From Escherichia coli (GTDB lineage: Bacteria > Pseudomonadota > Gammaproteobacteria > Enterobacterales > Enterobacteriaceae): a stretch of 64,000 nt of DNA. The notes under the pieces were generated by a model. The model was not told the origin of the DNA. It did not search any database and worked only from the letters and a program-made list of their open reading frames with translations. Both the position numbers and the translations under genes were made by a program. The stretch lies in NCBI RefSeq assembly GCF_024298765.1, contig NZ_CP101210.1; one strand, written 5' to 3'. Below are positions 49,541-50,095 of the stretch, piece by piece; position 1 is the first letter of the stretch, and the number at the start of each line of letters is the position of its first letter.

Positions 49541-49544
49541 GCTT

Positions 49545-49600
49545 AAAAATAAGGCCGGATGTGTGAATTACGCTCCGGCCTGTTCTCCAACATTTAATGA
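49545..49600. terminator. Hairpin between convergent yieK and cbrB (possible bidirectional terminator)
   Basis: Inverted repeat ggccggatgtgtgaattacgctccggcc in the 81-bp convergent gap. Confidence 0.45.
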
Positions 49601-49621
49601 CAAATAGATAAAGCATTCCGC

Positions 49622-50095
49622 TTAGCTTAAAGAGTCTGTTTCAGGACATGAAATATCCAATCCGGGTAGATGTGTAATGATTCTGCTCATCACTACGCCT
49701 GCCAGCAATGCTGGGATGATGCGGACAACGAGATTTTCACCAGAAAGAATGTTTTCAAACAACGCTGAGGAAGCCATGTCCTTAATATGTACGATAACAG
49801 CGCAATAGATCTCGGTGATAACGACTCCACCTATGCCGCCAACCAGACAACGATAACGTTTCTGTGACCCGATCTTTTCCGGCAGACAGGCGACCATTAC
49901 GCCAGTTAACATTGCAGGAATAGCTCCCGTAGTTATCGACATTAAGAGAAACAATGGAAGTACCTGTATTATTACCAAAAGAATCAGCGGTTCTTTTGCG
50001 AAGAATATGTAGAGGACAAGAAACAGAACACCAATTAACGGCCCTAAAACCGCAAAATACAGTCCGTGATGAATTACCCGACGTGAAACAGACAT
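49622..50095 (-). CDS. cbrB: Small inner-membrane protein
   Basis: 157 aa, about four predicted TM segments; recognised as CbrB/YieI by sequence and by position next to yieH. Confidence 0.8.
   Translation of the reverse strand: MSVSRRVIHHGLYFAVLGPLIGVLFLVLYIFFAKEPLILLVIIQVLPLFLLMSITTGAIPAMLTGVMVACLPEKIGSQKRYRCLVGGIGGVVITEIYCAVIVHIKDMASSALFENILSGENLVVRIIPALLAGVVMSRIITHLPGLDISCPETDSLS

Follow-up and report, generated by a model that had tools for sequence, protein, structure and literature searches.

Is the gene cbrC genuinely missing from the interval between yieK and cbrB in this Escherichia coli chromosome, and, if so, was it lost from an older cbrB-cbrC pair or is the pair itself the novelty? 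The window analysed here is a 64-kb stretch of DNA in which the gene order is bglH-yieL-yieK-cbrB-yieH, as it is in strain 104, to which window positions 48800-50900 are 100% identical (yieL is an intact 389-aa ORF in the window, without the frameshift annotated in strain 104). From the K-12 order yieH-cbrB-cbrC-yieK, the sequence-only reading had guessed that cbrC is absent at this place. That order is correct and the guess proved right: the K-12 derivative C600 has a 588-bp cbrC there, and the window has none. That reading had also described yieK followed by an 81-bp, hairpin-bearing spacer and a 157-aa ORF, and both coordinates and content are as it gave them (Table 1). With a probability of roughly 90%, we interpret the locus as the CFT073-like bgl-yieK-cbrB-yieH form, in which an old deletion of ~616-618 bp took the whole of cbrC.

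Table 1. Features of the yieK-cbrB-yieH region, in window coordinates
Feature	Coordinates	Strand	Description and basis
yieK (bglK)	48818..49540	+	240 aa, intact; ORF, Pfam PF01182, RefSeq annotation of strain 104
Spacer yieK-cbrB	49541-49621		81 bp, holds the hairpin
Hairpin, G+C-rich	49552..49581		Folding; common to cbrC-carrying strains including K-12
Repeat copy GAGAACAGG (+ strand CCTGTTCTC)	49579..49587	-	Candidate deletion site; motif positions
Putative deletion scar and cbrB-cbrC spacer remnant	49588..49621	-	Alignments
cbrB (yieI)	49622..50095	-	157 aa, intact inner-membrane protein of the CreBC regulon
cre tag TTCACACTCCCTTCAC	50143..50158	-	47 nt upstream of the cbrB start codon
yieH	50162..50827	-	6-phosphogluconate phosphatase (HAD family); core gene flanking the island
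adeP	50994-52331	+	

The 157-aa protein is CbrB and not CbrC. It matches the NCBIfam equivalog model NF007334 (CbrB) at 253.5 bits over residues 1-157, its full length, against a curated cut-off of 177 bits; RefSeq names the same ORF in strain 104 'protein CbrB', and the exact 157-aa sequence falls in a cluster that UniProt names CBRB_ECOK1. A Pfam search of the window CbrB gave no match in a copy of Pfam without the PF26516 model, which database relatives of the protein carry. Homologue searching with this protein returned only near-identical E. coli proteins, and the sole match in a contig scan for outgroup loci was a contaminant contig of 274 bp. The gene sits directly downstream of yieH and behind a cre tag, the same layout as in K-12, and dN/dS values of 0.19-0.35 against other alleles indicate that it is under purifying selection. 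Alleles of cbrB differ in length by 2 codons within window positions 49925-49987 (codons 37-57), a hydrophobic stretch that is a predicted membrane segment and that reads LVIIQVLPLFLL or WVIIHPIFLLL in the two variants. The 157-aa form occurs in 2,798 genomes in all, including the window and the cbrC-carrying BL21, and the 155-aa form in K-12 and an ST131-like strain, so that length follows neither the presence of cbrC nor the flanking haplotype, a sign that the locus is a mosaic. A tie between the 157-aa allele and cbrC loss was considered and dropped, as BL21 and many other cbrC-carrying genomes have the same length.

Nothing resembling a CbrC coding sequence was found anywhere in the 64-kb window by tblastn with K-12 CbrC (best E = 1.3), the check that the sequence-only reading had proposed, and in a blastn comparison of the K-12 cbrC region with the window only the shared 57-bp hairpin flank matches. 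(The CbrC family is modelled by NCBIfam NF040891 and Pfam PF03691, UPF0167.) In C600 the order is yieK, the same hairpin, cbrC (588 bp, minus strand), a 48-bp spacer, cbrB and yieH; K-12 therefore has no 81-bp yieK-cbrB junction, cbrC occupying the site. From the yieK stop, at 49538-49540 in the window, to the cbrB stop the distance is 697 bp in C600 versus 81 bp in the window, a net difference of 616 bp. The absence is also clean, as had been claimed, with no ORF remnant and with the shared hairpin and cbrB both intact.

The sequences at the two edges of cbrC suggest how the gene may have been lost. Read on the sense strand of cbrB, the upstream side in K-12 is ...TAA GCGGGATACTTTATCTTTGGGCTACTCAAAAGCAGACAGG ATGTTTCT ATG(cbrC) and the sequence after cbrC is TAG TTATTTAAATAAT GAGAACAGG CCGGAGCG..., where CCGGAGCG opens the hairpin; the window reads ...TAA GCGGAATGCTTTATCTATTTGTCATTAAATGTTG GAGAACAGG CCGGAGCG.... 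Just downstream of cbrC, K-12 thus has GAGAACAGG, and 8 nt before the cbrC start an imperfect second copy, GCAGACAGG; the two share an exact core of 5 bp, ACAGG. On the plus strand these repeats, CCTGTTCTC and CCTGTCTGC, are spaced 618 bp apart in K-12, compared with the net loss of 616 bp, and the window retains a single CCTGTTCTC. Slippage or illegitimate recombination between GCAGACAGG and GAGAACAGG is the probable origin of the deletion, which would have removed all of cbrC (yieJ) together with its ribosome-binding region and a short 3' flank, leaving cbrB directly against the hairpin.

An 18-nt stretch beside the repeat, ATTTGTCATTAAATGTTG on the minus strand, is found in cbrC-less genomes only. 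When the window spacer is joined to the K-12 cbrC start, the resulting chimera gives a single unbroken alignment with cbrC-carrying genomes (229 nt of subject versus 232 nt of query), which shows the window spacer to be colinear with the former spacer between cbrB and cbrC. The best such match is only 91% identical, no cbrC-carrying genome in the collection having a window-type spacer, and the deletion is therefore not recent. Because the 18 nt beside the repeat are too diverged, and close to neither flank of cbrC, the breakpoint would lie within ~49588-49609 but is not placeable to the base. An alignment at least as good, including one made by hand, matches 16/21 of the last 21 nt before the hairpin to the 3' flank of cbrC, which would move the breakpoint towards the stop codon of cbrB.

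The hairpin itself is stable: the plus-strand fold has an energy of -20.3 kcal/mol and the minus-strand fold one of -18.8 (z ~ -4), and 0-1 of 200 shuffles fold as well. Because UUAUUUUU comes after it on the minus strand, it is likely an intrinsic terminator of the cbrB transcript (ancestrally of cbrB-cbrC); on the plus strand, after yieK, the U tract is weak. Our simple terminator consensus scan, which takes loops of 3-8 nt only, did not call the hairpin. The plain stem GGCCGGA/TCCGGCC, of 7-8 bp, leaves a 14-nt loop that the fold shortens only by way of a bulged inner stem, and the loop limit may be the reason that the scan missed it. In starting with GCCGGATG and ending with TCCGGCCT, like the ends of the E. 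coli REP consensus, the hairpin resembles a degenerate REP element. Elsewhere in the window a crude regular-expression scan found only one loosely REP-similar site, and a canonical REP-like sequence lies downstream of E. albertii cbrC in the opposite orientation. At the other end of the unit, the cre-tag consensus TTCACnnnnnnTTCAC, reportedly the CreB-binding site (Avison 2001; Cariss 2008), has 1 match in the window versus 0.05 expected by chance, and the identical site is present in K-12. The ancestral arrangement was a CreBC-regulated pair read from this cre tag, with the hairpin facing yieK at its end; we infer that the cre tag would now drive a one-gene cbrB transcript stopping at the same hairpin.

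How widely is the gene missing? In the set of 5,426 complete E. coli genomes, 3,550 have at least some cbrC and 3,192 have 80% or more of its length, and 724-725, or ~13%, give a single contiguous match to the cbrC-less yieK-cbrB junction. Carriers and empty junctions together (3,550 + 725 = 4,275) come so close to the 4,280 genomes that have the end of yieK that the two classes must be essentially disjoint. At 100% identity this junction is shared by the type strain DSM 30083 (= ATCC 11775) and by APEC O2:K1:H4 and O2:K1:H7 strains, and in NRG 857C the 2.1-kb locus is matched in one piece at 98.5%, with cbrC absent. K-12/C600, BL21 and an ST131-like strain keep cbrC between the same hairpin and cbrB; ST131 strains, which also belong to phylogroup B2, thus retain the gene. 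Of the earlier description as a clean, strain-specific absence, the absence stands and the strain specificity does not: the loss is lineage-wide, in ~725 of the 5,426 genomes. In some other genomes insertion sequences have damaged the locus: ISEc22 (IS66) sits inside cbrC, IS903 in cbrB, or an IS3 element goes with the loss of most of cbrC and of a part of cbrB. Plainly the cell can dispense with the cbr genes, which are often eroded.

The empty junction exists in two versions. Roughly 555-590 genomes, in B2, have the window type, and ~135 genomes, typified by strain 1916D18, have a second version in a BL21-like A/B1 background. In the latter, cbrB is that of BL21 until ~50 nt before its stop, where a diverged patch begins that runs through the junction to the slightly shortened end of yieK, 6 nt shorter by way of a 12-nt deletion at the stop (L004:3700-3860 in our set). 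Over the patch the two versions differ by ~10%, and they share the odd 18-nt spacer ATTTGT[C/A]ATTAA[AT/CC]GTTG. The two are most simply explained by one old deletion and by later recombination of a short patch into an A/B1-type background. Several independent losses of cbrC at the same repeats, rather than one loss and its spread by recombination, would also place the deletion in two backgrounds, B2 and BL21-like A/B1, at a locus where other separate lesions such as those just listed are frequent. We nevertheless consider repeated loss unlikely: the peculiar spacer is common to both versions and present in no cbrC-carrying genome, which points to common descent and short-patch transfer.

The 1916D18 type has a further peculiarity at the 3' end of cbrB, a clustered 4-nt change that turns ...DISCPETDSLS into ...DNSCWKTDSLS. 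The changed end resembles the nearby GTTGGAGAACAGG spacer motif, and may reflect a local template switch or conversion.

The direction of the change can be read from E. albertii, where the chromosome (L010 in our set) has the order mdtL-yidZ-yieE-yieF-adeP-yieH, then 193 bp, cbrC and phoU-pstBACS. Within these 193 bp the alignment takes in the cre-tag region, the ribosome-binding site and, of cbrB itself, ~33 nt of the 5' part and ~25 nt of the 3' end, after which the cbrB-cbrC spacer runs straight into the cbrC start. From this make-up it follows that E. albertii once possessed cbrB-cbrC and has since lost most of cbrB. The remnant (L010:4808-5000) is a pseudogene that has a partly degraded cre-tag region (TTCTC...TTCAC), has lost its start codon and ~360 nt of internal sequence, and retains the 3' end and the cbrB-cbrC spacer. 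Between E. albertii and K-12, cbrC has a dS of 0.44 and a dN/dS of 0.11, and to judge from these values the divergence is at the level of orthologues under purifying selection. The cbrB remnants and the orthologue-level cbrC together indicate that the cbrB-cbrC pair predates the split of E. coli and E. albertii, and that the state in the window is therefore a derived deletion and not an empty ancestral site.

The converse scenario takes the cbrC-less state as ancestral and has cbrC enter between cbrB and the hairpin in the lineages that led to K-12, B1 and ST131; it is very improbable. Between K-12 and the ST131-like strain cbrC is 98.5% identical, with a dS of 0.036 versus 0.11-0.16 for the flanking cbrB and yieK, which could fit a more recent spread of the gene, and Sankar et al. 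regarded yieI and yieJ as horizontally acquired (PMC2646131). An insertion would, however, need to have entered precisely between the stop codon of cbrB and the terminator and to have rebuilt the spacer, and in E. albertii an orthologous cbrC already follows directly on remnants of cbrB, its spacer and start region being the same. The E. albertii locus largely refutes an ancestral cbrC-less state. Scarcely credible is an assembly or sequencing artefact, or a move of cbrC to elsewhere in the genome: nothing specific speaks for either, this genome being known here from 64 kb only, and both are at odds with an identical junction in hundreds of independent complete genomes and with nearly disjoint, additive counts of cbrC and empty junctions (the Southern blots that excluded bgl or yieIJ elsewhere covered only strains without bgl at its normal locus, not cbrC-less strains; PMC2646131).

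Divergent alleles also occur in the core genes beside the island. In yieH there are two very different E. coli alleles, most strongly so at ~50379-50778: the window allele is ~81% identical in DNA and 86% in protein to that of K-12, BL21 and 1916D18 (dS ~1.08; 61-68% in the central third), versus 96% to that of O157:H7 and 85% to that of E. albertii. The K-12-type yieH is the outlier, and foreign DNA may have replaced part of this core gene in A/B1 lineages. Another divergent patch lies in the 3' part of adeP, where window positions 51779-52178 fall to 90-94% identity to K-12, the ST131-like strain and 1916D18, compared with 96-100% in the neighbouring segments.

Returning to the old deletion, we find that it corresponds to a structure already on record. 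Sankar et al. 2009 (PLoS Genet 5:e1000405; PMC2646131) typed the bgl locus in 174 strains and described two bgl-carrying structures, one K-12-like with yieI (cbrB) and yieJ (cbrC) and one CFT073-like with yieI only; the latter corresponds to the sequence-defined bgl type II of phylogroup B2, with ST73, ST95, ST12 and related STs. In the same survey, yieJ of E. albertii adjoins phoU, and in O157 and phylogroup D strains the site is taken by the Z5211-Z5214 island. We see no structural difference between the CFT073-like form and the window, where the bgl island, whose final gene is yieK (a product of the glucosamine-6-phosphate deaminase family), likewise lies by yieH with yieI and no yieJ after yieK. 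The K-12 pair shares with the window the cre tag, the cbrB family, the terminator hairpin and the flanks yieH and yieK, but has cbrC, and its cbrB product is 155 aa long compared with 157 aa for the window gene, which is 91% identical. The type III island of O157:H7 and phylogroup D occupies the same site by yieH and also lacks cbrC, but there the whole bgl-yieL-yieK-cbrC-cbrB block has been replaced by unrelated DNA including espY4 (current annotation). The E. albertii locus, type V of Sankar et al., has the same ancestral cbrB-cbrC unit adjoining yieH but shows the reciprocal loss, with cbrC kept, most of cbrB removed by internal deletion, and no bgl island.

The gap is thus a real, clean and old deletion that was already described in 2009, and as the lineage-level loss of a dispensable accessory gene it is biologically ordinary. 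To the published account we add the census of complete genomes, the retention of cbrC in ST131, the second empty junction outside B2, the cbrB remnant of E. albertii as a reciprocal loss, a candidate repeat-mediated mechanism, and a direction of change, which is deletion and not insertion. It is also conceivable that the cbrC-less junction is an old allele that has persisted beside the cbrC allele and moved as a patch from B2-like into BL21-like A/B1 backgrounds, with the two cre-regulon genes acting independently of each other and with diversifying selection, tied to exposure to colicin E2, acting on whether CbrC is present or absent, in place of neutral erosion; we hold this to be decidedly unlikely.

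What the loss might mean for the cell depends on the role of CbrC in K-12. Judging by the title of Cariss et al. 2010 (J Bacteriol 192:3329), as cited in 10.1101/615310, and by PMC3599342, CbrC mediates CreBC-dependent tolerance to colicin E2; the running text of 10.1101/615310 itself credits this tolerance to 'YieI'. In K-12, colicin M co-induces creD, cbrA, cbrB and cbrC (PMC3599342). Because CbrC is reported to mediate tolerance in K-12, we predict that cbrC-less strains lose the CbrC-dependent, CreBC-activated tolerance to colicin E2, with no effect on cbrB or on the other members of the cre regulon. Beyond correct annotation of the bgl-cbr locus the importance of the deletion is slight. 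Strains with the cbrC-less form include major extra-intestinal pathogenic clones, which are predicted to be without the only described CreBC-dependent colicin E2 tolerance factor.
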